A DNA stretch of 64,000 bases from Candidatus Micrarchaeota archaeon (GCA_016207165.1 JACQQD010000009.1:106660-170659); one strand, 5' to 3'. Counted from the first letter of the stretch, positions 17,332-45,135 are shown. Notes: generated by a model from the letters alone, not told the origin. Numbers and translations are program-made.

Positions 17332-18000
17332 TTACTCCGGTTTGGACGTTCTTTTTTCAGGGTGGCACAATTCAAAAAGAACGCGGTACGCGTTCAGGAC
17401 GTCTTTTTCTTCTACAAAGAGAAGCATTTCCGGCACGCAACTCATCAACTCGTACATGTTGATGTGGTTTCGAGCCAGTTCCATGCAAAGCACGTACATG
17501 ATGCCCGGCGTGGTCACGGCGTCCGGATGCAAATGCATGTTGATTTCCGCGAGGCCGCGTTGCACCTTCAAGACGTTTTTCCGGGGGATGAGGTCCAGCA
17601 TTTTTTCCGCGTTTTTCTCGTCCACCAACAGCTTGATGGATTCTTCGCCTTGCACGATGCGCAACGTCTCGCCCCGCTCGTACTGCACCAAGGAGAACAA
17701 CTTGGGCAAGACTTTCTGGGTTTCCTCGCCTTTAGTCAGTGCGATGTTGACGATGTGGCTTTTCGTGGAAATGTTGGAGTGGCGGATGACGTTTCGGGCG
17801 TTGTCCTGCCACTGCGGCGTCTTGCTTTGCTTGGGGTAGCGGCGGATGGCGGAAATCAGGGCGTCCTCGTTGCCGGCGATGCCGTTTTTTTGGCAGTGCC
17901 GCGCCAGGGCCCGCATGTTGACTAAGCCCCGCGACAAGTCCAATTGGATGGAGGGGTCTGCGTCGATGAGCTTCCACACCGAATCCCTAATATTTGTCAT
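17332..18000 (-). CDS. ACT-domain-containing putative regulator (N-terminal HTH-like region)
   Basis: DLSRGLVNMRALAR..ALISAIRR N-terminal region and C-terminal TPGIMYVLCMELARNHINMYELMSC ACT pattern; divergent from leuA. Confidence 0.8.
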   Translation of the reverse strand: MTNIRDSVWKLIDADPSIQLDLSRGLVNMRALARHCQKNGIAGNEDALISAIRRYPKQSKTPQWQDNARNVIRHSNISTKSHIVNIALTKGEETQKVLPKLFSLVQYERGETLRIVQGEESIKLLVDEKNAEKMLDLIPRKNVLKVQRGLAEINMHLHPDAVTTPGIMYVLCMELARNHINMYELMSCVPEMLLFVEEKDVLNAYRVLFELCHPEKRTSKPE

Positions 18001-18060
18001 TTTGATGTCTAATGTGTCACTTATTTATATTTTTTGCCTTTTTTGTCACAATTTATAAAT
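17995..18060. promoter_or_regulatory. Divergent promoter region (ACT regulator / leu operon) with repeated TGTCA motifs
   Basis: TTTATAAA at 18052-18059 upstream of leuA and TTTATAT near 18025; TGTCA at 17995, 18015 and 18044, with variants at 18006 and 18035. Confidence 0.6.
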
Positions 18061-18086
18061 AGGGGTGGGCCGCCAGAAAAAAGGGT

Positions 18087-19685
18087 ATGGGCGTCAGCGT
18101 ATCTTCGGTTCCAGTCCACGTTTTCGACACGACGCTTCGGGACGGCGAGCAGTCGCCGGGCTGTTCCATGACCGCTGAAGAAAAGCTCATCATCGCCCGC
18201 CAATTGGTTCGGCTGAACGTGGACGTCATTGAAGCGGGGTTTCCCGTTGCCTCCAATGACGATTTTGATGCCGTCAAGCGCATTGCCGAGGAAATTCGGG
18301 TCCCCACAATAGCCGCGCTTTGCCGGGCCCAGCCCGAGGACATCACCCGCGGTGCCAAAGCCATTGAACCGGCGGCCAAGCCCCGCATCCACACGTTTAT
18401 TGCCACGTCCGACATCCACCTCCAGCACAAGCTGAAGATGACGAAACCCGAGGTGCTGGCACGCGTCAAGGAAATGGTGGGGCTGGCAAAAAGCCACGTT
18501 TCGGATGTGGAGTTTTCCTCCGAGGACGCGTCTCGAAGCGATGTTTCATTTCTCAAGCAAGTCGTCCGCACCGCCGTGGACGCGGGGGCCACCACCATCA
18601 ACTTGCCGGATACGGTGGGCTACGCGCAGCCGGCTGAATACGGCGCCATGGTCCGGCAAATTGCGGACATGCCGGAATGTGCGGGGGTCACTATTTCGGT
18701 TCACTGCCACGACGACTTGGGCCTGGCCGTAGCCAATTCGCTTTCCGGAATTCAGAATGGAGCGCGGCAGGTGGAGTGTACCGTGAACGGCATTGGCGAG
18801 CGGGCCGGCAATGCATCCTTGGAAGAAGTCGTGATGAACCTCAAAACCCGGCCGCGCCTTTTTCATGCGCACACCAACGTGGTTTCCCAGGAGCTTTTCC
18901 GTACCAGCCGCCTCGTTGCGGAATTGACGGGTTCGCCCGTCCAGCGGAACAAAGCCATTGTGGGAGCCAACGCGTTTGCGCATGAGGCCGGCATCCACCA
19001 GCACGGGGTCCTTGCCAACCGCATGACGTACGAAATCATGGCGGCCGGGGACGTGGGATGGAAAGGCGAGGACTTGGTCATTGGCAAGCATTCGGGCAAG
19101 CATGCCATTCACGCGGTCTTGTCCGGCATCGGCATCGAATTGGCGCCGGACCAACTGCGGGAAGTCGTGGAGAAAGTCAAGGAGCTGGGTGACAAGCAAA
19201 AAGACGTAGGGTCCGATGACGTCATCGGCATTGCCGAGGACGTCATGCAACGCGGACTGACGCCGGCGTTCTCGGTCCTGGATTACGTCGCCGTAACAGG
19301 CGACAAGGTGCCGGCCACGGCGACCATCAAGCTTTTCAAGGATGGAACCGAAGTCACGACTACCGCGCACGGCATTGGCGTGGTGGACGCCACGTTTTCG
19401 GCGCTCACCAAAGTCCTGCCAATTCAGGCCCGGCTTCAGCGGTACTCCCTTGAGGCCATTACAGGCGGCTCCAACGCCCTGGCCGCGATTACGGTGGTCT
19501 TGGAGGACGAGTCGGGACGCAAATTCCGTTCAAGGGCGGTGCACGAGGACATCGTCTTGGCGTCGCTGAAAGCGTTGGTCAATGGATACAACAAAGTACT
19601 TGTGTCAGGTGAAAAAAATGGGCGAAACAGTGTTTCTCAACGGCAAACCCTTCACCCCGCATCAAATGCCAGTCAGCGCGTTTGA
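18087..19685 (+). CDS. leuA: 2-isopropylmalate synthase
   Basis: DTTLRDGEQ, HCHDDLGLAVAN, GIGERAGN, HEAGIHQHG and a C-terminal regulatory domain; followed by ilvE-leuCDB. Confidence 0.95.
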   Translation: MGVSVSSVPVHVFDTTLRDGEQSPGCSMTAEEKLIIARQLVRLNVDVIEAGFPVASNDDFDAVKRIAEEIRVPTIAALCRAQPEDITRGAKAIEPAAKPRIHTFIATSDIHLQHKLKMTKPEVLARVKEMVGLAKSHVSDVEFSSEDASRSDVSFLKQVVRTAVDAGATTINLPDTVGYAQPAEYGAMVRQIADMPECAGVTISVHCHDDLGLAVANSLSGIQNGARQVECTVNGIGERAGNASLEEVVMNLKTRPRLFHAHTNVVSQELFRTSRLVAELTGSPVQRNKAIVGANAFAHEAGIHQHGVLANRMTYEIMAAGDVGWKGEDLVIGKHSGKHAIHAVLSGIGIELAPDQLREVVEKVKELGDKQKDVGSDDVIGIAEDVMQRGLTPAFSVLDYVAVTGDKVPATATIKLFKDGTEVTTTAHGIGVVDATFSALTKVLPIQARLQRYSLEAITGGSNALAAITVVLEDESGRKFRSRAVHEDIVLASLKALVNGYNKVLVSGEKNGRNSVSQRQTLHPASNASQRV

Positions 19686-24550: not shown

Positions 24551-25687
24551 TTAGGGAAGGAAGTCCTTGGCCTTGATTTTCTCTGGAAGGTAGTTGTTGG
24601 AGATGTACTGCAGGTTTTTAGATGAAAGCGCCTGGATTTCGGCTTTGAGTTTCTTGTCCAAGAACAAGTTGATTTCGTGCTGCCATTCCTTGGCTTTGAA
24701 CCAGTCGTAGGCCTGCATTTCCTTCGCTCTTTTGATGTCGACGTCTTTCGCCTTGATGGTCACCGCTCTCAAGTCGTACGCCTCGATGTCGGAGGTGGAC
24801 ATGCCCAAAAACTTCATGTCCGGGCAACCCAGCCGCTCCGATTCATGGGCGAGGGCCATGGAGCCGTACTTCATGGTTGAATAAATGTACCATCCGTACG
24901 GGTCCGAGTCCGTCAAGCAGTAGATGGGGACTTTGAGTTCCTCGCTGATACGCTGCAAAAGCCTTCTTGCGCCTCGGGCGGCCTGCCCGGCCGTGGTCAT
25001 GAGCAGGCAGTTGTTTTTCTTCCAGTATCCGTCTTCATTGAGGCGGTCAAAAATCGCGTTTTTTTCGGCGACCAGCACGTACTCTATTTCCACGTCCTTG
25101 AACTCGATTTGTTCGACGATGCTGGGAACCGCCCACCCGCCGGAACCCATGCGTTCCAAGTCGATGGTGTCCACCTTGTCTCGGACGCGGTCAACCACCT
25201 TCATGGGTCCGGCCATGCGCCCTTTCGGTTCGGCCCGCAAATGCAGGCGTTCGCGAAAAGAGTCCAAGGCGACTTCCAAGTCGACAATCGCGATGTCGGA
25301 TTCCTTTTGTTCGTCGATGGTATCCTCCTTGGTCCCTTGGATCGTGTGTTTTTTGGCGTAGTACAAGTCACGAAGGGTGGCGGTCAAGTCGTTGGCAAGC
25401 AAATCTTTCTTGACGTAGGAGGCTACAAGCAGTGTCTGCATGAACCGGCGCGCATGCGCCACGTTGAACAAGTAACGGCGCGCCACTTTGTCGCCCAACC
25501 GGATTTTCTTGTCTTTTTCGTCGAAAAAGACGTTGCCGGATCCCCGAATGGGGATGTCCAAGTGTGGGTTCTCCTCTTTTTCTATTTCCTTGATGAGTTG
25601 TTCGGCGAGTTTTTCGATGCGCTGGTTCATTTCCTCGATGCGCTTTTTCTTGTCGGCGGGAGTGGTTGGAGTTCTTTTGGCGTTCAT
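24551..25687 (-). CDS. top6A: DNA topoisomerase VI subunit A
   Basis: TLRDLYY catalytic Tyr; TOPRIM VAEK and TDSDPYG; KAEIQAL. Confidence 0.97.
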   Translation of the reverse strand: MNAKRTPTTPADKKKRIEEMNQRIEKLAEQLIKEIEKEENPHLDIPIRGSGNVFFDEKDKKIRLGDKVARRYLFNVAHARRFMQTLLVASYVKKDLLANDLTATLRDLYYAKKHTIQGTKEDTIDEQKESDIAIVDLEVALDSFRERLHLRAEPKGRMAGPMKVVDRVRDKVDTIDLERMGSGGWAVPSIVEQIEFKDVEIEYVLVAEKNAIFDRLNEDGYWKKNNCLLMTTAGQAARGARRLLQRISEELKVPIYCLTDSDPYGWYIYSTMKYGSMALAHESERLGCPDMKFLGMSTSDIEAYDLRAVTIKAKDVDIKRAKEMQAYDWFKAKEWQHEINLFLDKKLKAEIQALSSKNLQYISNNYLPEKIKAKDFLP

Positions 25688-25696
25688 GATGCAAGT

Positions 25697-27343
25697 TTAC
25701 GCCTCCGCTTCAATTTCTTTCTCGGCTTCGTCTTCAATGGCTTCGAGTTCGTCTTCCGCTTCACTGGCTTCCTGGGATTCGAGGTACTCGGTGCGCTTCT
25801 CGGCAATGCTTTTGAGTTTGGGCATGAGCGCCGAAGCCTTGCGCCCGGAAATGTCTTCCAAGGCTTGAGCGATTTCCGTGATGTACTTGAAAAAGATCAT
25901 GCGTCTTCGCTCTTGCTCTTCGGCTTTCGCCAGCGAACGCAGGTACACGGAGACGTCGCGGGCGGCCTCCATCAAAGCGAACCGGATTTCCGCCACGATT
26001 TCCTCTTCCGCTGAAATGGCGAGTTTCCCGGCGCCGGTGTACGGCACGTACACGGACACCAAATTAACCAGAATGGTGACTGGCAGCGCCTCGAACTCCT
26101 TGAGTTCGTACCGGTTCAAGTCAATGCTCTTGAAGGCCTCCGTAATCGCGCAGTTGCCGGCGTCAAACAACAACGGCACTCGGTTGGCAAACCGCAGCAA
26201 CTCGCCTTTACGCGTTTCCCCGACCAGGGAACCGGAGTTGCCTCCGTACGCGATGGCGACTTCCACGCTGAACGGAATGCCGCCGCGGAACACCTTGGGC
26301 TTTCTCTCAATGACGCGCCACTTCTCGGGCTTCAGCAGGTTCTTGAGCGATTTTTCAAGTTGGTCTTCACCAATGGGAATCAACGTGTCGGTTTCCGGCG
26401 CAATCCACTTGATTTTGGAAAACGCTTTCACGATTTCCTCGGCTTCCGCCCATTGCAAGGCTCTCGGCGACCGCTCCAAATCGATGCCCGGCAGCATGGC
26501 CTGGATTTCCTTGACTTTGTCCGCGGAAATGCGGGTGAAATCGGAAACCAAAAACGAAGAGATTTTTCTCCCGGTGGTCACCGCGGCCATGTCCATGAGG
26601 TCCGACGTCGTCAACCCCAAGGGGTGCGGCTTGACGGCTTTGGCCTTCTTGGGCACTACATTGGTGGCCCTGGGAAAAACCGTCAACTGTTTGTCCGGTT
26701 CCAACAGCGTGATTTGGGCGTGAGGGTTGGCCAACGCCGTCCTTCGCAGGTACTCGTAGACGCCGTACTCGGAGCGGTTGTACCCGACTTCCGCGTACTC
26801 TGCTTCGATGCGCGTGCCCTGGAACTTCCCGGAATACTCCTTCTCGTTCTCGATCTTGGCCGCATTCGTCTTGATGTCGATGGAGACGTCGGCTTCGTAA
26901 ATCTTGCCGTCCCCCAAACTCGTCTTGACGTGCGTGGGTTTGCCCGTCGTGATTTGCGAAAACAGCGTGGCGTACGCGGCGCCAATGCCTTGCTGGCCCC
27001 GCTTCTGGGCGCGGTGATGGAACTTGGTGCCAGCCAAGAGTTTTCCAAGCGCTTGGCCCACGTTTTTCTTGGGGATGCCGGTGCCGTTGTCTTGGACGAC
27101 CACCTTGAAATGGTCTTGGGGCAACTCCGCGATCTCCACGCGGAGGTCCGGCGTGATTTTGGCGTCCTCGCACGAGTCCAAGGAATTGGTGACGAATTCG
27201 TGGACGATGGTCGTCAGGCTGCGCAGCTTGCCGGAGTACCCCAGCATCTGGCGGTTCTTCTTGAAGAACTCCGCCACCGAGTACTCTTGGAAGGCCTTCT
27301 CCAATTCCGTTCGGGTGGGTGCTTTTTCTTCCGCCAAAATCAC
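25697..27343 (-). CDS. top6B: DNA topoisomerase VI subunit B
   Basis: GHKL motifs EFVTNSLD, DNGTGI and RGQQGIG; RFANRVPL; VPYTGAGK. Confidence 0.97.
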   Translation of the reverse strand: MILAEEKAPTRTELEKAFQEYSVAEFFKKNRQMLGYSGKLRSLTTIVHEFVTNSLDSCEDAKITPDLRVEIAELPQDHFKVVVQDNGTGIPKKNVGQALGKLLAGTKFHHRAQKRGQQGIGAAYATLFSQITTGKPTHVKTSLGDGKIYEADVSIDIKTNAAKIENEKEYSGKFQGTRIEAEYAEVGYNRSEYGVYEYLRRTALANPHAQITLLEPDKQLTVFPRATNVVPKKAKAVKPHPLGLTTSDLMDMAAVTTGRKISSFLVSDFTRISADKVKEIQAMLPGIDLERSPRALQWAEAEEIVKAFSKIKWIAPETDTLIPIGEDQLEKSLKNLLKPEKWRVIERKPKVFRGGIPFSVEVAIAYGGNSGSLVGETRKGELLRFANRVPLLFDAGNCAITEAFKSIDLNRYELKEFEALPVTILVNLVSVYVPYTGAGKLAISAEEEIVAEIRFALMEAARDVSVYLRSLAKAEEQERRRMIFFKYITEIAQALEDISGRKASALMPKLKSIAEKRTEYLESQEASEAEDELEAIEDEAEKEIEAEA

Positions 27344-36008: not shown

Positions 36009-36059
36009 CGTCTTTTAAATCCGTGCGAATTATAGCCTTTAAAGGTGAGTGCAACGCGT

Positions 36060-37703
36060 ATGGACGTAAAACTTTTGGGTTTGTTCTTGATTGGCGCATT
36101 GTTCATTGCCGGGTGCGTTACGACCCCCGATGGCCGACCGGCTCCGGAGGGCGTGCAAGTCACAAGCTCGCCCGCGTCACCGACGCCCAGCGGTTCAAGC
36201 AACGGCAACGCCCAAGTGCAGACCCGAAGCGCCCTGCGGGTTCCCCTGAACAACGACGGATCCCCCACGTTGGCGCAAAGCACGGTTCAAGTCCAGGGAC
36301 AAGCCTTGGTGGAGTTCCGCGACGAGCAAAACGGGTACCGCATCATGAAGCCCGGCGGCTGGCAAGCCGACATTTACGAGGACGCGTATTTGCTGGTCAG
36401 CCGGGACGCGGACACGGACGTCTTGGTTTGGCCCATCAAACTCCAGGGCCAATACAAGAGCATGACGGGCGAGGGCTTGGGCAACTACTTGATTGGTTTG
36501 ATCAAGCAGCAGTTCACCGACTTCACTCCGGAAAGCATCAGCGTCTCGCCGGACAAGTCCAGCATGCAAGTCATCGCGACGGTGAGCGTGGAAGGCACGA
36601 AACTGAAAGTCCAAATGAGCACGTTTGTGGACGAAAACGGAAACGGCATTCTGTCCGGGTATGAAGCCCGCGAAGAAGAATTCATCGCATTGGAGCCTTT
36701 GTTGCGCAGCATTGCCACTTCGTATCAACCCATCGTTACGTCGGCCACAAAAGCCGCTGTCGGTCCGGCGCCCACTCAACCCAGTGGGTTCGGCGGTGTC
36801 ACCGGAGTCCAACTGGTTCCATTTACTTCCGGAGACGGTGCATTTTCGTTCCAGTCGCCGGCTGGCTGGAAAGTGGAATCCCTGGGGCAATGCTCCACGA
36901 AATCCATGGCGGCCTACGACCCCCAAAACCCGGTTCGCCGCGTGTTTGCCATCGCATCCAACACGTACTCGTTGCCCGTTGACGGCGCCACGGCGGAAGG
37001 GGTGGCCACCGGAGGCCTGCCCGCCTTATCCCAATACGTGCCCGCTTTTGGAACAATGACCAACGTTCAAGTCACAGCAGGCACGAGGCAAGCCTATCCG
37101 GCCACGCAGGGAGTGCCGGGGATTGTCGACGCGGCCGTGTTTGAAGTCACCATGACCATCGATGGAAAGCCGGCCCGCGGACGCGTGGGCACGTACTTGC
37201 TGGATCCTTCAGGCGGATACTTCGGGTCAAGCGGGGTATACTATTTGAGTTTGGCTGGCTCGTTTGCCGAACCCGAGGCCTTTGATTCCCTCATTGGCGT
37301 GGTTGACCCCTTGGAATCGCGTGGACCACTTGGGAAATCCGTGGGCACGTTTGAAATCAGCCAATCGTATGCCAACGCGTGCACGGCGTCCGGCCAAGCC
37401 GACATTTCGGCGCGAACCGGCGACATTTCCCGCACGCTTTCGGAAACCTCGGACATCATCACCGGAGGATACAACGAGCGTTCGCAGGTAACGGACCGCG
37501 TGGCGCAAAAGTGGTCGGACACCACGCTGGGCGTGGACCGCGTGTACAACCCGGACCGCGACGAAGTCTACCAGGTGCCCAACAACTTCTACGACGCGTA
37601 CGACATCAACCGGCAGAAATTCGAGCAGCAAAACCTCCAGCCGCTCACCCCAGAGCAGTGGAACACGTACGCGCCCCTGGACGGGGCCCTGAACATTCGT
37701 TAA
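36060..37703 (+). CDS. Large putative lipoprotein with two PsbP/DcrB-like repeats
   Basis: MDVKLLGLFLIGALFIAGC lipobox, a Ser/Pro/Thr linker, and repeated GYRIMKPGGWQ / AFSFQSPAGWK motifs. Confidence 0.75.
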   Translation: MDVKLLGLFLIGALFIAGCVTTPDGRPAPEGVQVTSSPASPTPSGSSNGNAQVQTRSALRVPLNNDGSPTLAQSTVQVQGQALVEFRDEQNGYRIMKPGGWQADIYEDAYLLVSRDADTDVLVWPIKLQGQYKSMTGEGLGNYLIGLIKQQFTDFTPESISVSPDKSSMQVIATVSVEGTKLKVQMSTFVDENGNGILSGYEAREEEFIALEPLLRSIATSYQPIVTSATKAAVGPAPTQPSGFGGVTGVQLVPFTSGDGAFSFQSPAGWKVESLGQCSTKSMAAYDPQNPVRRVFAIASNTYSLPVDGATAEGVATGGLPALSQYVPAFGTMTNVQVTAGTRQAYPATQGVPGIVDAAVFEVTMTIDGKPARGRVGTYLLDPSGGYFGSSGVYYLSLAGSFAEPEAFDSLIGVVDPLESRGPLGKSVGTFEISQSYANACTASGQADISARTGDISRTLSETSDIITGGYNERSQVTDRVAQKWSDTTLGVDRVYNPDRDEVYQVPNNFYDAYDINRQKFEQQNLQPLTPEQWNTYAPLDGALNIR

Positions 37704-38080: not shown

Positions 38081-39502
38081 TTACTCAATTCTCCGAATGA
38101 TTCCCTTCTCGGCGTCGACTTCCACGAGGTCGCCGGTCTTAAACACGCGAGTAGCCATTTTGGCGCCCACGATGCAGGGCTTGCCGAATTCGCGGGCAAT
38201 CACGGAGGCGTGGCTGGACACGCCGCCTTCGTCAGCCACCACCGCCGCCGCGCGTTGGACCAAGGCCGCGTGACCGGGTTGCGTCATGGTCGTGATGAGT
38301 ACGTCGCCGTCTTGAAACGCCGACTCGTCCTTGATGAGTTGTTCCATGCCCGCCACGTGAAGCACGTACGCCTTGCCGCGGGCCATGCCGGGGTTGGCCA
38401 CGAATCCGGATACTTCGGAAACCGTCAAAACCGCGTCCAAACCCATTTTGTTTCGCAACGCGTCAGCGGACTCACCGGTCAACAACTGGGTTTGGCCGTC
38501 GCGCCGCCAAACCGCGTACCCTTGTTTTCGTTCACGGATGACGGTAGCATCCGGAATCTTGTTTTCCAACAAGGCCGACCGAAAGTCGTCGAGTGTGTAC
38601 GCGTACAACAAGTCGTTCAACGGAGTCGTGGTGCGCCGCGCGATTTCAGCGTATAGGGATTGGAAACGCCATTCCGCACCCGCCCACGCGTTTTTTAGGG
38701 CCAAGCGCTCGTGGCCGAGGCGTTGGAGGAGCTTAAGGACGTCCACGGTTTGAGAATCCAGTTGCGCGAAGGCGTTCGCCTGTTTTTCCTTCAATTCGTT
38801 TCGATGCGCTTGGATTTGGTCCAACTGCGTTTGTAGGGTTTGCGTGTCTTGTTCTTGGCGGACGCGGGCGTGAAGCGATTCCAGCACTTTTCCGCGGGCA
38901 AACGTCTGGTAGAACATCCACGCGTGCTTTTGCGCGTGGGCTTCCAATTGCGCGTCGGAGGCAACTTGTTTCGCCAGGGAAATAATGTCCGAAAGTTCGT
39001 CGTCCACGATGTCGGGTTGCGTGGGGCTAGTCAGTTCGGAGAAGGATTTCTCGGAGTCAAACGCGGTGCCTTTCAATCCCGCTTTGGCTTTCTTGACCAA
39101 GGCGTGGGTGCCGGCTTCCTGGGTGGCGGAGAAAATCGTGCCGATTCGGCGGATGTGGCGGCACATGCCGTCCAGCGTTTCCCAAAGAAAAGCGTTGGAG
39201 GCGTCCGAAAGCGGTTGTTCTTTAAACGCGTTGGAAAGCTCGGCCAAGTCCTGGCACGCGGACGCGGATTCACTTAAAATGCGTTCTTGGACGCCCGGCT
39301 GCAACCATGTTGAGCTCATGGCCTGCCATTCCGAAAGCATGGCGCTTGACGCGTAGGCGGCCACGGTCTGGGGGTTGCCGAACACGACGTAGTCCACGCG
39401 TTGGGGTTGACCAAACGCGTAGGGACCGTAAGTCAAAACCGAGCGGTCGTGGATGGAGAAAAACGTGTGGGCTTCCGACCACTGGAATTCGTAGGGTTCC
39501 AT
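38081..39502 (-). CDS. PEP-utilising enzyme mobile (His phosphocarrier) domain protein without ATP-grasp domain
   Basis: C-terminal GDVLITTMT.P..ADEGGVSSHASVIAREFGKPCIVG; true start ATG 39502, because the longer ORF overlaps the tRNA. Confidence 0.88.
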   Translation of the reverse strand: MEPYEFQWSEAHTFFSIHDRSVLTYGPYAFGQPQRVDYVVFGNPQTVAAYASSAMLSEWQAMSSTWLQPGVQERILSESASACQDLAELSNAFKEQPLSDASNAFLWETLDGMCRHIRRIGTIFSATQEAGTHALVKKAKAGLKGTAFDSEKSFSELTSPTQPDIVDDELSDIISLAKQVASDAQLEAHAQKHAWMFYQTFARGKVLESLHARVRQEQDTQTLQTQLDQIQAHRNELKEKQANAFAQLDSQTVDVLKLLQRLGHERLALKNAWAGAEWRFQSLYAEIARRTTTPLNDLLYAYTLDDFRSALLENKIPDATVIRERKQGYAVWRRDGQTQLLTGESADALRNKMGLDAVLTVSEVSGFVANPGMARGKAYVLHVAGMEQLIKDESAFQDGDVLITTMTQPGHAALVQRAAAVVADEGGVSSHASVIAREFGKPCIVGAKMATRVFKTGDLVEVDAEKGIIRRIE

Positions 39503-39565
39503 CCTGGCCTGAAAAGGAAGTTCGGGCTTGATATGGGTTTTGGAATATTGCCCGGGGTGGATGAG

Positions 39566-39691
39566 GACGAGGGCGGGGATTTGAACCCCGGTCTGCGGAT
39601 TTCCGTTCCGAACCCGTCGCCGTTGGCAGGCAACGGCGACTTCGCTCAGAACCACAGTCCACTATCCTGACCAAGCTAGACGACCCTCGTC
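39566..39691 (-). tRNA. tRNA-His(GTG) with encoded G-1 and a 51-nt intron at 37/38
   Basis: Reverse complement: G-ACGAGGG-TC-GTCT-AGCTTGGTCA-GGAT-A-GTGGA-CTGTGG[intron 39651-39601]A-TCCGC-AGAC-CGGGG-TTCAAAT-CCCCG-CCCTCGT-C. Anticodon at 39655-39653; C73; CCA not encoded. Confidence 0.95.
39601..39651 (-). other. Archaeal BHB tRNA intron
   Basis: Central helix CUGU/ACGG, 3-nt bulges GG^U and AA^A, outer helix UCUGAGC/GUUCGGA, and an inner perfect 10-bp stem GUCGCCGUUG/CAACGGCGAC. Confidence 0.92.
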
Positions 39692-39741: not shown

Positions 39742-41517
39742 TTATTCTTTCGCTTCTTTGTTCAGGCCGCGTTCGTCGTCATCGAATTCGATGAGGTCAA
39801 CTGGTTTTTTCCGGAAGCCTTTGCGGGAGAACCACTCGGTGGCAAACAACAACGCCAAAAGCGCGATGACGCCCAAAGGCAGAAGAATCGGGTTGTCGGG
39901 AAATGCCACCAAGCCCGTGATGGGCACCTGGGTGGTGTTCGAGGATTCAGGCGTTGCCGTTGTTACGGGTAGGGATGGAAGGGGAGCCGGAGTGGCGATT
40001 GGAGTGGATGTGCTGGATCCGACCAGTGTCCCCAAGCGTTGCATGATCGCGTCAATGGACAGGTCGGCTTGGCTGGAAGCGGCTGGCTGGGAGGACGCCT
40101 GCGTCGGCTCCGGTTGCGTGGACACGTCTTGAAGCCGGACGTCGATGGACAACTCGAAAATCGGGGTTTGGACCGTGGTTTGCGCGTTGGCGTCCGCGCC
40201 GGTGGCTTGGAAGTAGGCTTTGCAGTTTGCGGCGTACGGTGGCGACTGGATGACCCAGTCGGTGACGGAGGGCGCGTCCGCCAACCGGCCGACGAATTGG
40301 CTGGACAAGCCAATCAATTCACAGCCCTCGCTGACATCCAGTAAAGCCACGGTGGTGTTTTGGGACGCGGCTTGCCCGTCGTTGAAAAGGAATAATTCCA
40401 CGCGCTTGGATTGGGAGGCGTCCAGTTGCAAGGGTTCGGCTTGCAGGCGCAGGGTTGCCGGTCGTTGGACGTCCACGGCCACGGGCGCGGAAATTACGTT
40501 TTGGAAGAGGCCTTGGGTTTGTTCGACGAACTTGCCCGTCACGCGCAAGTCTTTGGTTCCTTCTGGAAGCCGTGTGGGGGCAAACAGGACCGGCTGGGTT
40601 TCGCCAGGGCCCAACGTGGTGAAGAAAGCGCTTTGGACGGGGTTCTGGCCTGCGTTGAGCGTTAAATTGACGTCGCGGGCCGAAGTCTCGCCGGTGTTCT
40701 GGACGTGGACGCCTATGGTGACGAACTCGTTGGCGGAATACGTGGTGCGGGACGGCGGAACCAGGCGCAACGAAAGAGCGGCGGGGTTGAGGACCACTAC
40801 CCGTCTGGAAATAGAGCGCGTCACGGGTTGCCCGTTGTTGGCGTCGGAGCCTAAGACGTCAAAGGCGACGTCCAAGGCGTCGGCGCGTTGCGGGGGCGTA
40901 ACGTTCAGGAGAACGCGTTGGGTTTCGTTCGCGCGCAAGGTGAATGCGCCGGAGGGAGAAGCAACGAAGGGCAAAGACACGTCCACGGCATTGGAAAAGC
41001 CGCGTACTTGGAGGTGGACGTCTTGGGCAGTGGCCTGGCCGGTATTGATGACGGTGAGTTCAACGGGGTTGGAAAGTCCCGTCAGCCAGGAACCCGCGGT
41101 GTTTGATTCCACGGAAAGTTGGGACGGGTTTTGCACGTCGAAAACCACTGACGCGTTGGACGCCAAAGGCCCTTTCGGCGGGTACGCCAAAACGATGAAC
41201 GAGTACGGGCCCGGCGTGGCGGGGGCGCGGGTGCTTAAACCGATAAATCCAGCGGCCAAAAAGTTGGTGCATGGAGCCGGACACGCGCAGTGCACGCGGC
41301 GCTGGGTGTCGGCGTTCTTGAACCAGTCCACGGGACAGGAAAAATCGTTGGGGCTGGCTTGCTGCCAGTTTTCGGGAAAGTACACGAAGACGCTGGAAAC
41401 GGGTTGGGTGGCGGAAAAGGGAAACGAGAGGTTTGCGGCTTGTTGGGTGGTCAACGTCGAGGCGGAAACCGCGCTGGCGAAAAACACGAAGGCAAAGAGA
41501 AACGCAGGATACTTCAT
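39742..41517 (-). CDS. Secreted, C-terminally membrane-anchored surface protein with CARDB/Ig-like repeats
   Basis: Signal peptide MKYPAFLFAFVFFASAVSA; three V/LxNxG..A..V repeats (INTGQATAQDV, QNTGETSARDV, FNDGQAASQNT); Thr/Pro/Ser linker; ITGLV before a TM helix and basic tail. Confidence 0.8.
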   Translation of the reverse strand: MKYPAFLFAFVFFASAVSASTLTTQQAANLSFPFSATQPVSSVFVYFPENWQQASPNDFSCPVDWFKNADTQRRVHCACPAPCTNFLAAGFIGLSTRAPATPGPYSFIVLAYPPKGPLASNASVVFDVQNPSQLSVESNTAGSWLTGLSNPVELTVINTGQATAQDVHLQVRGFSNAVDVSLPFVASPSGAFTLRANETQRVLLNVTPPQRADALDVAFDVLGSDANNGQPVTRSISRRVVVLNPAALSLRLVPPSRTTYSANEFVTIGVHVQNTGETSARDVNLTLNAGQNPVQSAFFTTLGPGETQPVLFAPTRLPEGTKDLRVTGKFVEQTQGLFQNVISAPVAVDVQRPATLRLQAEPLQLDASQSKRVELFLFNDGQAASQNTTVALLDVSEGCELIGLSSQFVGRLADAPSVTDWVIQSPPYAANCKAYFQATGADANAQTTVQTPIFELSIDVRLQDVSTQPEPTQASSQPAASSQADLSIDAIMQRLGTLVGSSTSTPIATPAPLPSLPVTTATPESSNTTQVPITGLVAFPDNPILLPLGVIALLALLFATEWFSRKGFRKKPVDLIEFDDDERGLNKEAKE

Positions 41518-41542
41518 TTCGCACAAGTAACGCCCAGGGAAG

Positions 41543-41550
41543 TATTTATA
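41543..41550. promoter_or_regulatory. Putative bidirectional TATA box
   Basis: TATTTATA/TATAAATA lies about 25 nt from both the minus-strand ATG (41517) and the plus-strand ATG (41574). Confidence 0.65.
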
Positions 41551-41573
41551 GCCGGTGTCGGTAAGTTTGACGC

Positions 41574-42494
41574 ATGGCGGAATGGGAGTGGCTTTGGTTC
41601 GGCGTGTCCATCGCCGTCATCGGATTTGCATTGGTTCGGTCCCTGCGCGGTTCCGGCCAGCACAACCCTTCCTTTTTTTTGTGGTCCATGCTGTTGGCCG
41701 TCTTGTTGGCTGAAGCGGGGGTCCGATTGATCGGCGCGCCGGAGTCCACGCTTCTGAACGCCTACCGCGTCGTGTTGGTGTTCGGTTTTCTCGCCATTTT
41801 TTTGACGTTTCACTACTGGAAAAGCCAGGCGGCTTGGTTGTATGACGCCAAATCCAGTTTGCAGGGATTTTTCTCGTATTACTTGAGTCCCAAAGTCATC
41901 CAGGACTTGGTGTCCCGAGGCCACGTGCCGTTGGGCGGCAAGCGCCGGGACGTGACGGTGTTGGTCACCGACGTCCGCAATTCCACGAAGTTGGCGTTGG
42001 ATTACCCGGCGGAGAAAGTCGTCAAATCACTGAATGCCTACTTTGAGCTGGCCTCCCAGTCCGTGGCCCGCCATGGCGGGGTGGTGGACAAAATCACCGG
42101 CGACGGAGTCATGGCCGTATTCAACGCACTGAACGTTTTGCCGGACCACACCATGAAGGCGTTTTACGCCGCCGCGGAAATCCAGCAGGCCATGCCGGCG
42201 CTCAACGAGAAGCTGCGCAACCGCGGGCTTCCGGTTTTATCGGCAGGAGCCGGCATTGACGCGGGTGACGCCGTGGTCGGCAACATCGGCTCGCGGCACA
42301 TGGTGCGCTTTACGGTGATTGGCGACGTGGCCAATACCGCTAACCGAGTTCAGGAAGCGGCCAAGGACGGGCAAGTGGTGTTGACGGAGGCGGCGTACCG
42401 CCGCGTGGCCGGGCACGTCAAGGGTTCGGGCCCAAAAACCGTGATGGCCAAAAACAAGGGACCGGTTTCCGTGTACGTGGTGAACGTGGTTTGA
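41574..42494 (+). CDS. Membrane-bound class III nucleotidyl cyclase (predicted adenylyl cyclase)
   Basis: Three N-terminal TM helices; VTVLVTDVRNST (metal D), VDKITGDGVMAVF (K, second D), VVGNIGS and FTVIGDVANTANR (T, N, R). Confidence 0.93.
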   Translation: MAEWEWLWFGVSIAVIGFALVRSLRGSGQHNPSFFLWSMLLAVLLAEAGVRLIGAPESTLLNAYRVVLVFGFLAIFLTFHYWKSQAAWLYDAKSSLQGFFSYYLSPKVIQDLVSRGHVPLGGKRRDVTVLVTDVRNSTKLALDYPAEKVVKSLNAYFELASQSVARHGGVVDKITGDGVMAVFNALNVLPDHTMKAFYAAAEIQQAMPALNEKLRNRGLPVLSAGAGIDAGDAVVGNIGSRHMVRFTVIGDVANTANRVQEAAKDGQVVLTEAAYRRVAGHVKGSGPKTVMAKNKGPVSVYVVNVV

Positions 42495-42496
42495 AG

Positions 42497-43261
42497 ATGA
42501 CGTCCAATTCAAGGGGGCGGCTTGGACGAAAAGTAAGTTACGCCGCCGTGTTCCGCCGCATGCGGGCCCGCTTGTCGGAAAAAGACCGGCAGGCGGACCA
42601 AGAGTATGGCCGCGTGTTTCAGGAAGCCCGGCTGAGAGTCCGCACCGACTTGAAAAACTTGGACGGCCATTTGCATTATCACAGCATGTACCACACCGAA
42701 GACGTGGTTCAAACCGCGGAAAGGCTGGCACGCCTCGCACAACAAAAAGGGCAATTGTCGGAGCGGGACGTGTGGCTCATCAAGTTTGCCGCGCTGTTTC
42801 ACGACCACGGGTTTTTGTCCGGCGTGTACCAGGACAACGAGGCGTTGGGCGCTCAGGCGGCGGAGGAACACCTCCGCGGCGCGTTATCGGATGAAGACGT
42901 CGGCATCATTAAAGCCGCCATCATGGATACGCAGCTCCGGGAGCACGGCGGGTACCCCGTGAAAGTGCAGAAACCGGCGACCCTTCACGGCAAATACTTG
43001 TGCGATGCGGACGTGGCAAGCTTAGGCCGAAATGATTACCACCGGCTCAACATGAAATTGTACGCGGAACTCCAGGAGAAAAATCGGCTGCAGAGCCAAA
43101 CGGGCCGCCAGCCATTGGAGGCCTTTTTGGAGCGAAGCATCCATTTCCTCAAGGCGCATGTGTGGCACACGGAAGCGGCGGAAAGCCAGTACGGAGTCCA
43201 GAAACTAGTCAACCTGCGCGGGGTTCAAAAGCAATTGGAGCGCCTCAAAAGCGCCGCCTGA
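42497..43261 (+). CDS. HD-superfamily phosphohydrolase, class I PDE-like motif
   Basis: YHSMYHTEDVVQ, AALFHDHG, NEALGA and LCDAD; starts 2 nt after the cyclase stop. Confidence 0.88.
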   Translation: MTSNSRGRLGRKVSYAAVFRRMRARLSEKDRQADQEYGRVFQEARLRVRTDLKNLDGHLHYHSMYHTEDVVQTAERLARLAQQKGQLSERDVWLIKFAALFHDHGFLSGVYQDNEALGAQAAEEHLRGALSDEDVGIIKAAIMDTQLREHGGYPVKVQKPATLHGKYLCDADVASLGRNDYHRLNMKLYAELQEKNRLQSQTGRQPLEAFLERSIHFLKAHVWHTEAAESQYGVQKLVNLRGVQKQLERLKSAA

Positions 43262-43275
43262 ACGTACGGGCCACG

Positions 43276-45135
43276 CTAAGGGGCTCGCTCGAATTTGGGC
43301 TCCCTTCGCTTCGAAAGGATGAGGCCGAGGCCGGTGGTGGGGCCCGCATACCCTTTGTAGACTTCCATCAAGTGTTCGTCCTGGATTTTCATGGCCGCGG
43401 CGAACACGTCGGGATCGAAATGCCCGCCTTGAGTGAATTCGTGCATGAGGCCGCGCACGCGCTCCCAGGAAAACTGGCGCTTGCCGTATGGAACGCCCTT
43501 GACTTTCTTCATGCGGCGGATGTAGTCACGCTCCGTCAAAAACGCGTCCATGACGTCGGCCATGGCGATGATGCGGGCCACCAACGGAATGTCGGTGCCG
43601 GCCAACCCGTCTGGGTAGCCTTTTCCGTCCCATCGCTCGTGGTGGTGCCGCGCGCCGTTGCGCACGGTTTCGCTGGGCCGGTGAAGCTTCAACTCGTTGT
43701 CGGAGTGGACGGGATGTTCCTTGATTTTCTCGAATTCCTCGTAAGCCAACAAGTCTTTTTTCCTCAGGAGTTCACCGGGTATGCTCAGCTTTCCGACGTC
43801 GTGAAGCAACGCCGCCATTTTGAACGCGTCGATGCGTCTCCGGCTGAACAACTCAACGCCGTGGCGCTCCACGTGGTCGGCGTTCATGATCCGGGCAATG
43901 AGTTCTGAGAGCGCCGCCACGCGTTCCGAGTGGCCCCGGGTGTACTCGTCGTGGTCTTCCAGGTCCTTCATACGGGAAATCAAGCCGGCGTGGCGCCCGA
44001 ATCGGATTTCCATGTTCCGCCACAAGTCCAGCACGGGCCGGTTCAATCGGGCTTGGCGGGCAATCTTATGCATCTCGTCAAATGCCACCGCCGGAAGCGG
44101 CGTGTCCTTGTAGAAGTGAAATGACGCCAAATGGGGGGCCTCCGGGAGGGCGATGTCATCCTCGTATTCGTCGCGCAATTCAGGGGAAAAATGGCCGAGG
44201 TGGATGTCTCCTTCCGTGCAGGGCGTGTAACCCATGGCCTCGTCAATGAATCGCTGGCGCTGGATTTGATTCGGAAAATTCACGGTAAGGTGGGGTGCCG
44301 GCGTGCCATCGGGGTGCTGGTTTCCTTCCATGCCTAAATGCAGGCGCAAGGCGCGATACGTTCCGTGTTCGTCCAACCGCATGACCGGCAACGCGCGTAC
44401 GTTTCGCCCCGTGCCGTCAATCAGGCTGACATACTTCAAATAATCCACGCCAGGGTCGTCCTTTTGGCTGCCGACTTGATAAGGATCCGGTCGGCTGATC
44501 ATGGCCAGGGTTGACGAGCCCCGGAGAGGGCCTTCACCGGGTTGTGGCGGACGCATCTTAAGATGGGGGTCGTGAAGTTCCCGTGCCGTTGGACGCCGGC
44601 CTTCCACGTAGGCGTTGTGCATGTACCAGGCCAAGGCATGCGCGGCCCGGCCTGGCGAAGCTTCACGCTCCATGGCGTGGGCCAACGCGGAAACATCGGG
44701 TTGCCGAAGCGGGGGAATCGTGTTTTCCTCGATTACGGCGGTGGCCAACTGTTTGATCTGGGGCCTGCGTCGTGCGTGAAGGGCGTACGGCTGGATGCGG
44801 TATCTCTGTAGGCCGTCGCGAATGGCTCGTTGGTCCGCGTCGGAAAATTCGCCGTGAATGATCAACGGATTTCCAAACCCGTGGCTGACGCGCTCATCCC
44901 GCTCATTTAAACCAATGGATTGCGCCATGGCCTGGTGAACGCGCTGCATGAACGCCGACATGGATTCCTCGGCTTCGCGTTGCACGTGAATGGGGTAAAC
45001 GCCCAGTTGCTTGAAGACTTCCTCCGATAAAACGCCTGGAACTTGCGTGGGCTTTTGCTCGTTGAAAACCACGGCCGAAGGGCGAACGGCAATTCGCTTG
45101 AGCCTCTGAGGCACCGGCCGAGCCTTGTAGGGCAT
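43276..45135 (-). CDS. HD-GYP domain protein with about 390-aa uncharacterised N-terminus
   Basis: DEYTRGHSERV, LLHDVGK, IKEHP, HHERWDGKGYPDGL, IPLVARIIAMADVMDA and HFDP. Confidence 0.92.
   Translation of the reverse strand: MPYKARPVPQRLKRIAVRPSAVVFNEQKPTQVPGVLSEEVFKQLGVYPIHVQREAEESMSAFMQRVHQAMAQSIGLNERDERVSHGFGNPLIIHGEFSDADQRAIRDGLQRYRIQPYALHARRRPQIKQLATAVIEENTIPPLRQPDVSALAHAMEREASPGRAAHALAWYMHNAYVEGRRPTARELHDPHLKMRPPQPGEGPLRGSSTLAMISRPDPYQVGSQKDDPGVDYLKYVSLIDGTGRNVRALPVMRLDEHGTYRALRLHLGMEGNQHPDGTPAPHLTVNFPNQIQRQRFIDEAMGYTPCTEGDIHLGHFSPELRDEYEDDIALPEAPHLASFHFYKDTPLPAVAFDEMHKIARQARLNRPVLDLWRNMEIRFGRHAGLISRMKDLEDHDEYTRGHSERVAALSELIARIMNADHVERHGVELFSRRRIDAFKMAALLHDVGKLSIPGELLRKKDLLAYEEFEKIKEHPVHSDNELKLHRPSETVRNGARHHHERWDGKGYPDGLAGTDIPLVARIIAMADVMDAFLTERDYIRRMKKVKGVPYGKRQFSWERVRGLMHEFTQGGHFDPDVFAAAMKIQDEHLMEVYKGYAGPTTGLGLILSKRREPKFERAP

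Follow-up and report, generated by a model that had tools for sequence, protein, structure and literature searches.

The joining of an enzyme that makes a cyclic nucleotide to one that breaks it has been described in plants, where the protein CAPE combines a class III adenylate cyclase and a class I phosphodiesterase (PDE) in a single chain, and so provides, by that account, the same make-and-break logic in a eukaryote (PMC8115329). As regards archaea, a 2023 review states that cyclic AMP (cAMP) has been measured, and, as far as its account goes, no archaeal protein that makes, degrades or binds cAMP has been characterised (PMC10249747). The locus considered here lies at positions 39,742 to 45,135 of a 64,000-nucleotide stretch of DNA from a Candidatus Micrarchaeota archaeon (GCA_016207165.1 JACQQD010000009.1:106660-170659), the whole of which is called the window, and places a gene for a membrane-anchored class III cyclase directly upstream of a gene for a soluble HD-superfamily hydrolase, the HD protein. 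On balance, we favour the reading that the two genes encode a co-expressed cAMP synthase/phosphodiesterase pair, carried on two separate archaeal genes whereas CAPE is fused in one chain. A search of the literature recovered the plant CAPE fusion, and returned no description of bacterial or archaeal cyclase-HD or class-I-like PDEs, nor of Micrarchaeota cyclases. The locus is composed of known kinds of parts in a new arrangement.

A membrane-anchored class III cyclase

The best solved relatives of the cyclase are 6fht, a phytochrome-linked adenylate-cyclase derivative of Cya2 (E=3e-31), and Cya2 of Synechocystis itself (2w01, E=6e-30), both class IIIb enzymes that align over about 185 residues and that have the two metal-binding Asp residues and the Asn/Arg pair in common with the locus cyclase. 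The Pfam family Guanylate_cyc (PF00211) is matched at residues 125-303 (E=3.1e-16; 59.9 bits against a cut-off of 21.9), within a catalytic domain that spans about residues 120-303. All six class III catalytic positions are present (D133, D177, K173, T247, N254 and R258), and the cyclase is thus as an earlier note on this DNA had described it, a class III enzyme with three transmembrane (TM) segments, two Asp residues, Lys/Thr selectors and an Asn/Arg pair. By textbook class III numbering, D133 and D177 hold the metals, N254 and R258 act on the transition state, and K173 and T247 are the purine selectors. Across 14 cyclase homologues from DPANN archaea five of these residues (D133, D177, T247, N254 and R258) are invariant, and K173 is found in 13 of the 14. 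The latter residue aligns with the Lys selector of 6fht and with a Glu in 2w01; in work on Cya2, exchange at the equivalent position reportedly switches GTP to ATP. Cya2 itself, a guanylate cyclase, uses Glu/Gly selectors and makes cyclic GMP (cGMP). Judged by its residues, the cyclase looks like an active adenylate cyclase, and its product would be cAMP.

The N-terminal part of the cyclase holds three hydrophobic segments (residues 6-24, 32-55 and 58-81), and the loops between them are too short to accommodate a sensor domain. The short 3-TM anchor sets the protein apart from Cya2-type enzymes, as no sensor, HAMP or CHASE domain is recognisable in it. This form of the enzyme, about 305 amino acids (aa) long, was found full-length (87-99% query coverage) in archaeal clusters only, mostly of Micrarchaeota and otherwise of Norongarragalinales and Woesearchaeota, about a dozen DPANN clusters in all; bacterial matches cover the catalytic domain only. 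The genome to which the window belongs (G000; 1.27 Mb in 12 contigs, estimated to be about 90% complete) has a single match to PF00211, the locus cyclase, and among the 401 genomes sampled from the phylum the family is present in 28.

The HD protein and its family

The TGA codon of the cyclase gene ends at 42494 and the HD gene begins with an ATG at 42497, a gap of 2 nucleotides (nt) that was read directly in the sequence. Initiation at the in-frame TTG at 42491 would instead give an overlap of 4 nt with the cyclase stop codon.

A word-based search with the HD protein returned 2 clusters. A profile built from four close relatives and searched against 1.84 billion representatives recovered 3447 relatives at E<=0.001, of which 2140 remain at E<=1e-10; the majority of the relatives are stand-alone proteins of about 200 aa. 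Among ten clusters looked up, two were named, as 'HD domain-containing protein' and 'adenylate/guanylate cyclase domain-containing protein'. In an alignment of 66 family members the residues H62, H66, H102, D103, T145, D170, D172 and E191 are invariant, and these include the H...HD...D metal motif (H66, H102-D103 and D170).

The AlphaFold2 model of the HD protein has a mean predicted local distance difference test score (pLDDT) of 95.1. When the model is compared with the PDB, the matches listed down to rank 48 are all catalytic domains of class I PDEs (PDE5, PDE4D, PDE10, PDE6, PDE9, TcrPDEC1 and RhoPDE; E 3e-4 to 2e-3, TMq 0.46-0.60), and it is not until rank 49 that an HD protein of another kind is met. 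Eukaryotic class I PDEs such as PDE4, PDE5 and PDE10 (Pfam PDEase_I) share with it an HD-fold metal centre, a YHxxxH motif followed by HD, and a distal Asp. The spacing of YHxxxH...HD, with 36 residues from His to HD, equals that of class I PDEs and PDE4 in particular, and phmmer aligns this stretch, weakly, with a PDE. In size the two differ, the catalytic core of the HD protein being about 200 aa long as against about 270-330 aa in class I PDEs. The model permits the suggestion that the HD protein works like a class I PDE, and membership of class I is not claimed. Prediction of a complex between the cyclase catalytic domain and the HD protein gave a score of 0.00, which is no verdict and is not used as evidence either way.

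Repeated linkage of the HD family to class III cyclases

Association with a class III cyclase recurs throughout the family of the HD protein. Forty of the best 150 profile matches are longer than 300 aa, 32 of which match the Pfam family HD (PF01966) at E<=0.001. In 25 of these 40 long relatives PF00211 is fused in the same chain, often in the order Reg_prop/Y_Y_Y-cyclase-HD; GAF is carried by five of the 40, HATPase_c by four, PycTM by two, and PPK, HAD and YitT by one each. Linkage is also seen between separate genes, as a class III cyclase gene lies in the flank of 16 of 50 HD-family loci, mostly from Bacteroidota, and in 14 of these 16 it abuts the HD gene upstream and on the same strand. 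Of the 34 loci that show no cyclase in the flank, at least 7 have less than 500 nt of upstream sequence and are not judgeable. The typical arrangement in Bacteroidota is a REC-cyclase gene followed by one for HD-YitT-DUF2179.

The Bacteroidota fusions and gene pairs thus join the same HD family to a class III cyclase as the archaeal locus does. They differ from it in that the locus has two separate genes, with a TM-anchored cyclase that carries neither REC nor Y_Y_Y sensors and an HD protein that carries no YitT or other added domain, and in that the clade of the window HD protein is not nested in the bacterial cyclase-linked clade.

The partners of the family are diverse, including GAF-histidine kinases, PycTM (as in Pycsar effectors), YitT_membrane-DUF2179, polyphosphate kinase, HAD hydrolases and SpoIIE (relatives P0021, P0095 and P0110; loci L096, L100, L102 and L062-L089).

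A candidate make-and-break pair

Because the family is repeatedly fused or adjacent to cyclases and the fold resembles that of class I PDEs, the HD protein is plausibly the phosphodiesterase of the cyclase. According to the mechanism that we favour, a homodimeric 3-TM class III adenylate cyclase would form 3',5'-cAMP from ATP on the inner side of the membrane. Translation of the HD gene, starting 2 nt further on, is probably coupled to that of the cyclase gene, such that the two proteins would be expressed together. The HD protein, as a compact soluble metallo-phosphodiesterase resembling the core of class I PDEs, would hydrolyse cAMP to 5'-AMP, and in doing so may keep the signal short-lived and local. 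The pair sits in a small, rearranging signalling islet between a gene with a phosphoenolpyruvate (PEP)-utiliser domain and hisS, an islet that also holds an HD-GYP protein with an intact metal centre, altered base motifs and a putative regulatory region of 390 lineage-specific residues.

Conservation of the arrangement in related genomes

The coordinates of the genes and the gene orders at the corresponding loci of three related genomes are collected in Table 1.

Table 1. Features of the locus in the window, and gene order at the locus in the window genome and its relatives; (-) denotes a gene on the minus strand.
Feature or genome	Position	Strand	Basis or gene order
Surface-protein gene (CARDB/Ig-like repeats)	39742-41526; start ATG 41517 or TTG 41526	-	Open reading frame (ORF), 592/594 aa
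TATA-box-like element, TATTTATA	41543-41550	.	In the 56-nt divergent spacer between surface-protein gene and cyclase gene
Class III cyclase gene, IIIb-like, membrane-anchored	41574-42494	+	ORF, 306 aa; Pfam Guanylate_cyc
HD gene, soluble HD-superfamily metal-dependent phosphohydrolase	42497-43261; alternative start TTG 42491	+	ORF, 254 aa
HD-GYP gene	43276-45135	-	ORF, 619 aa; Pfam HD_5
G000 (window)			PEP-utiliser(-), surface(-), cyclase, HD, HD-GYP(-), hisS
G001, same genus			Cyclase, 169-aa polytopic membrane protein, HD, HD-GYP(-), PEP-utiliser(-), hisS
G002, same genus, 82% complete			PEP-utiliser(-), TIM-barrel, 666-aa P-loop protein, histidine-kinase-like protein, cyclase, 168-aa membrane protein, HAD(-), hisS
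G009, same family, other genus, 71% complete			PEP-utiliser(-), HD, TIM-barrel(-), HD-GYP(-), contig end

In G001 the order of cyclase and HD genes is kept at 43-46% identity, and the HD-GYP gene stays near the HD gene in both G001 and G009. In two congeners the islet adjoins hisS, and in each of the three related genomes it adjoins the same PEP-utiliser gene. In addition, homologues of the cyclase (86% identical), the HD protein (51%) and the HD-GYP protein (76%) each come with a longest contig of 13,652 bases, as would be expected if there were a fourth copy of the trio. Of 61 relatives, 11 have the cyclase, 4 the HD protein and 13 a match of HD-GYP type.

The earlier note had treated four genes, the divergent surface-protein gene included, as one candidate signalling locus. 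The cyclase, HD and HD-GYP genes do occur together in G001; the surface-protein gene is not conserved, however, and in G002 and G009 either the HD gene or the cyclase gene was not found. The surface protein matches the Pfam family CARDB (PF07705; E=6.1e-09, 36.5 bits against a cut-off of 22.7), with NPCBM_assoc below its cut-off, and, taken from the ATG at 41517, has an N-terminal hydrophobic signal (residues 4-24) and a C-terminal TM segment (536-564). It is predicted to be secreted and anchored in the membrane at its C-terminus, with CARDB/Ig-like repeats. A tblastn search with it against the syntenic loci of G001, G002 and G009 found no counterpart beside cyclase or HD; it was rejected as a component of the module and is probably a neighbour.

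Two further sets of genes were seen in the related genomes. A polytopic membrane protein of 168-169 aa is encoded by a gene that overlaps the cyclase stop codon in G002 (L018 9133-9639) and G001 (L019 9201-9710); it has no Pfam match, and no homologue of it was found in the window genome. Upstream of the cyclase gene in G002 (L018 5066-8025) lie genes for a 666-aa protein, which begins with a P-loop motif and ends in a degenerate HD-GYP/HDOD-like part, and for a 320-aa soluble histidine-kinase-like protein (HATPase_c); together these two genes there take the place of the HD and HD-GYP genes.

The convergent HD-GYP gene

The HD and HD-GYP genes converge with a gap of 14 nt, the HD stop codon ending at 43261 and that of the HD-GYP gene occupying 43276-43278. 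The closest described relatives of the HD-GYP protein are phosphodiesterases, the best solved being V-cGAP3 (5z7c, E=3e-27), a phosphodiesterase of cyclic GMP-AMP (cGAMP), followed by the cyclic di-GMP (c-di-GMP) enzymes PmGH (4mcw, E=1e-17) and PA4781 (4r8z). The window protein has in common with these a match to Pfam HD_5 (PF13487; E=3.6e-25, 89.1 bits against a cut-off of 27.2), a domain at about residues 392-545, the full set of metal ligands (H402, H445-D446) and the HHExxDGxGYP motif (HHERWDGKGYP at 498-508), and the fold, for the C-terminal domain of its model resembles HD-GYP structures (9rbz, 4r8z) at TMt 0.72-0.78. It is the only HD_5 match in the window genome.

It departs from the described enzymes in two respects. 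The KPG and RxY[K/R] motifs are stated to bind the guanine bases of c-di-GMP (Galperin and Chou, bioRxiv 10.1101/2021.11.05.467447). In the window protein the KPG position reads KKD and the RxY[K/R] position reads RDYI, the latter being RPYP in G001 and RDYV in G009 as compared with RPYK in PmGH. The second departure is the N-terminal region. Residues 1-390 have no match in Pfam or in a protein atlas, and a word-based search of 5.8 billion proteins found one other cluster with them, so that the region is lineage-specific as judged by sequence comparison. The model gives it an alternating beta-alpha subdomain at residues ~20-140 (pLDDT 80-94) and a less confident beta-rich part at residues ~200-345. 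A GAF-like sensor in this region was considered and rejected, as the Foldseek matches to GAF were weak (E 0.007-0.045) and hhalign against a 20-sequence GAF alignment gave a probability below 1%. The same lineage-specific N-terminal region is present in a 598-aa paralogue encoded elsewhere in the genome (contig C1; L052 6025-7821, plus strand), which keeps the HD dyad and lacks HHExxDGxGYP; this degenerate protein is a candidate non-catalytic sensor or receptor.

HD-GYP proteins had been described as rare in archaea, and this needs qualifying for the phylum sampled here. HD_5 is found in 39 of the 401 genomes. GGDEF is found in 149, which represent 71 of 155 genera and include an unpublished genome, G087, and 26 of the 39 genomes that bear HD_5 also bear GGDEF. 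This abundance of GGDEF fits a 2026 report in which archaeal GGDEF proteins, including some from DPANN contigs, are credited with diguanylate cyclase activity and their co-occurrence with HD-GYP is asked about (PMC13725321). Of the 28 genomes with the cyclase, 10 also have HD_5, as compared with 29 of the 373 others; these counts are descriptions and not tests, as kin are not independent. The genes for the two are adjacent only in G000 and G001.

Given this background, the HD-GYP protein could be an ordinary phosphodiesterase of c-di-GMP or 3'3'-cGAMP that works apart from the cAMP pair, on dinucleotides made by a synthase encoded in the unassembled tenth of the genome or supplied by host or neighbouring cells. 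We regard this as rather unlikely. The identity of its best solved relatives, the complete metal centre and signature motif, the frequency of GGDEF among genomes with HD_5 (26 of 39, as against 149 of 401 overall) and the reported activity of archaeal GGDEF proteins all speak for it. However, GGDEF was found in none of the three genomes of the window's genus (G000, G001 and G002, 82-90% complete), and EAL, DAC and SMODS (CD-NTase) have no matches in the window genome; the KPG motif is altered in the window protein and RxY[K/R] both there and in the two orthologues, and in G001 and G009 the HD gene is again found close by. A further difference from the described enzymes is that no cyclic-dinucleotide synthase was found in the window genome. 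Because the base motifs are not kept and no GGDEF, DAC or CD-NTase was found, the proposal that this second enzyme clears cyclic dinucleotides is unproven, and endogenous c-di-GMP is unlikely in the window's genus. The link of the HD-GYP protein to the cyclase-HD pair is one of position only.

Is the HD protein a dedicated phosphodiesterase?

The assignment of the HD protein as the partner of the cyclase has to be weighed against an alternative in which the cyclase is real and its neighbour is an HD phosphohydrolase of general function (perhaps a nucleotidase, or a hydrolase of 2',3'-cyclic nucleotides or of alarmones) that stands next to the cyclase by accident in a rearranging region, such that the cyclase has no dedicated phosphodiesterase. 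We consider this unlikely.

The observations that weigh against a dedicated pair are of several kinds. The first concern the protein itself, whose Pfam matches (HD-CE, DUF7108, HD and PDEase_I) all fall below the cut-off; PF01966 (HD) scores 17.1 bits with a cut-off of 22, and PF00233 (PDEase_I) scores 16 bits with a cut-off of 24.8 and is matched at profile positions 1-45 of 238 only. The structural likeness to class I PDEs is moderate, with the TMq values given above accompanied by a root-mean-square deviation of 6-9 A. From residue 102 the protein reads HDHGFLSGVYQDN (HDHGF), which does not agree with the class I PDE signature, HD[LIVMFY]xHx[AG]xx[NQ].

The second kind concerns distribution. 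The HD family is present in 24 of the 401 phylum genomes, and PF00211 accompanies it only in G000, G001 and, weakly, G004, leaving 21 of the 24 with no class III cyclase; likewise, no cyclase lies within 1.5 kb of the HD gene in any of 18 further Micrarchaeota loci. Within the family of the window organism the two genes are also found apart, as G002 has the cyclase and no HD or HD-GYP orthologue was found in that 82%-complete genome, and G009 has the HD and HD-GYP genes and no cyclase was found in its 71%-complete sequence. No two of G000, G001, G002 and G009 have the same gene order in the islet. A FastTree tree built from 110 HD domains places the window HD protein in a clade of four members (support 96), whose sister group, with weak support (80), consists of bacterial HD-GAF-histidine-kinase fusions. 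Bacterial HD proteins that are fused or adjacent to a cyclase form the other large clade, apart from that of the window. Fusion to HAD, polyphosphate kinase, SpoIIE and histidine-kinase modules, noted above, is also as would be expected of a more general enzyme.

Finally, no receptor for the signal was found in the 90%-complete window genome, in which neither cNMP_binding (PF00027) nor GAF_2 has a match. A search of that genome for CYTH domains gave none either. The searches that had been suggested for cyclic-nucleotide-binding, GGDEF, DAC and CD-NTase domains in the genome accordingly returned nothing. The make-and-break proposal of the earlier note therefore stands in part, with the cyclase-HD pair supported by fusion, adjacency and fold, and the description of the module as self-contained not sustained.

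Against an accidental neighbour stand the 2-nt gap, or 4-nt overlap, between the two genes and the retention of their order in G001 despite the divergence of the proteins. Moreover, cyclic-nucleotide PDEs of class I rank first among the HD-fold structures of the PDB, and cyclase linkage is found in at least two separate parts of the HD tree, with GAF fusions in the nearest bacterial neighbours of the window clade. As the linkage is scattered in the tree, it arose on more than one occasion, and not all members of the family show it. Such repeated linkage supports a functional tie of HD proteins of this family to cyclases, and leaves room for other substrates of the HD protein.

Wider and less probable readings

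The cAMP pair may also be imagined as part of something larger. In the most far-reaching version, the cyclase, HD and HD-GYP genes would constitute one archaeal cAMP circuit that has no bacterial or eukaryotic counterpart, with the N-terminal 390 residues of the HD-GYP protein as the cAMP receptor, a proposal that we hold to be improbable. That cAMP, made by the 3-TM cyclase and trimmed by the HD protein, would in this circuit gate an HD-GYP enzyme retargeted from c-di-GMP, perhaps to nucleotides acquired from a host cell on which this archaeon, with its reduced genome, relies, is to be regarded with equal reserve.

Less probable again is that the locus is a Pycsar-like anti-virus system, in which a cyclic (pyrimidine) nucleotide is made on infection and the HD protein or the small membrane protein serves as effector or off-switch; we think this very unlikely. 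Pycsar systems, consisting of PycC with PycTM or PycTIR, do resemble the locus in that a class III-type cyclase is followed by a tightly coupled second gene, and the cyclase matches 13 PADLOC models of PycC (best E=6.6e-22). The two HD-PycTM fusions among the long HD relatives, and the polytopic membrane protein whose gene overlaps the cyclase stop codon in G001 and G002, point the same way. However, the PycC models are class III cyclase models, and a match is expected of any such cyclase, while the conserved selectors K173 and T247 are those for purines. In the window there is no PycTM, TIR or cyclic-nucleotide-binding effector (PF00027 being without a match in the whole genome) and no meaningful PADLOC match for the other proteins; the small membrane protein, for which Pfam gives no match, has no homologue in G000. 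In addition, the locus lies in conserved synteny among housekeeping genes (hisS, ileS) and not in a defence island.

Contamination by bacterial DNA or mis-assembly in an archaeal bin, which might be suspected as all three domains are far commoner in bacteria and as Galperin and Chou hold that their 70 archaeal HD-GYP ORFs, nearly all from metagenome-assembled genomes, are possibly contaminant (bioRxiv 10.1101/2021.11.05.467447), is already contradicted by the position of the genes in the middle of a contig of 170,659 bases that also encodes topoisomerase VI subunits A and B (24551-27343), by the islet's shared neighbours in related genomes, by the GC content of the locus (0.596-0.598 as against 0.51-0.59 elsewhere in the window), by the bridging of all three junctions, with zero differences, by Logan contigs from two further runs of the same study, and by the 3-TM form of the cyclase common to about a dozen DPANN clusters.

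The host and the divergent promoter region

The host is a DPANN archaeon of the Micrarchaeota, because topoisomerase VI A and B are encoded in the window and the nearest relatives are titled Candidatus Micrarchaeota; the nearest HD-protein loci and the named cyclase homologues carry this title or those of Norongarragalinales or Woesearchaeota. The archaeal origin proposed for the DNA is therefore borne out, and the signalling genes are not contamination. No 16S rRNA was found in the assembly, and no Rfam family in the window. Four sequencing runs hold the sequence, all of them DNA runs of one groundwater study, and no RNA run is listed among them.

The layout of the locus was read in the sequence as it had been reported, with the 2-nt gap, the 14-nt convergent gap and a central TATA-like element. 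The latter, TATTTATA, lies in the 56-nt divergent spacer (41518-41573), separated by 23 nt from the ATG of the cyclase gene and by 25 nt from that of the surface-protein gene. The 8-mer occurs three times in the window, as compared with 0.07 occurrences expected by shuffling. The other two copies (18022-18029 and 18054-18061) are on opposite strands in the 86-nt spacer of another divergent gene pair, 21-25 nt 5' of start codons at 18000 and 18087. Because these enriched copies recur 21-25 nt upstream of other divergent start codons, TATTTATA is plausibly an archaeal TATA box, and would serve near-leaderless transcripts in both directions. The copies near 18000-18087 look like a local TATA-box consensus for leaderless genes.

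Two neighbouring genes of the window complete the description. The PEP-utiliser-domain protein (38081-39655, minus strand; about 500 aa) has a C-terminal PEP-utilisers mobile domain and an N-terminal part of about 440 residues with no Pfam match. It belongs to a strongly expanded family, with 11 matches in the window genome and up to 24 in one relative, and as this family is present in 60 of 61 relatives the protein was rejected as a part of the module. A 552-aa protein encoded at 36045-37703 (plus strand) has a lipoprotein-like N-terminus and no Pfam match.

Implications for cyclic nucleotide handling in archaea

The locus offers a compact candidate pair, a 306-aa cyclase and a putative 254-aa phosphodiesterase, that can be cloned from a genuine archaeal contig, for the handling of cAMP in archaea. 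The HD-GYP protein, being well anchored in an archaeal lineage in which no GGDEF was found, bears on the question which of the HD-GYP genes reported from archaea are genuine and on which substrates their products act. The HD protein, in turn, represents a large prokaryotic family with no name of its own, with 3447 representative clusters that are repeatedly linked to cyclases and a model that looks like a minimal core of the eukaryotic class I PDEs. If members of this family are active on cAMP, class I-like PDEs would be extended to bacteria and archaea.

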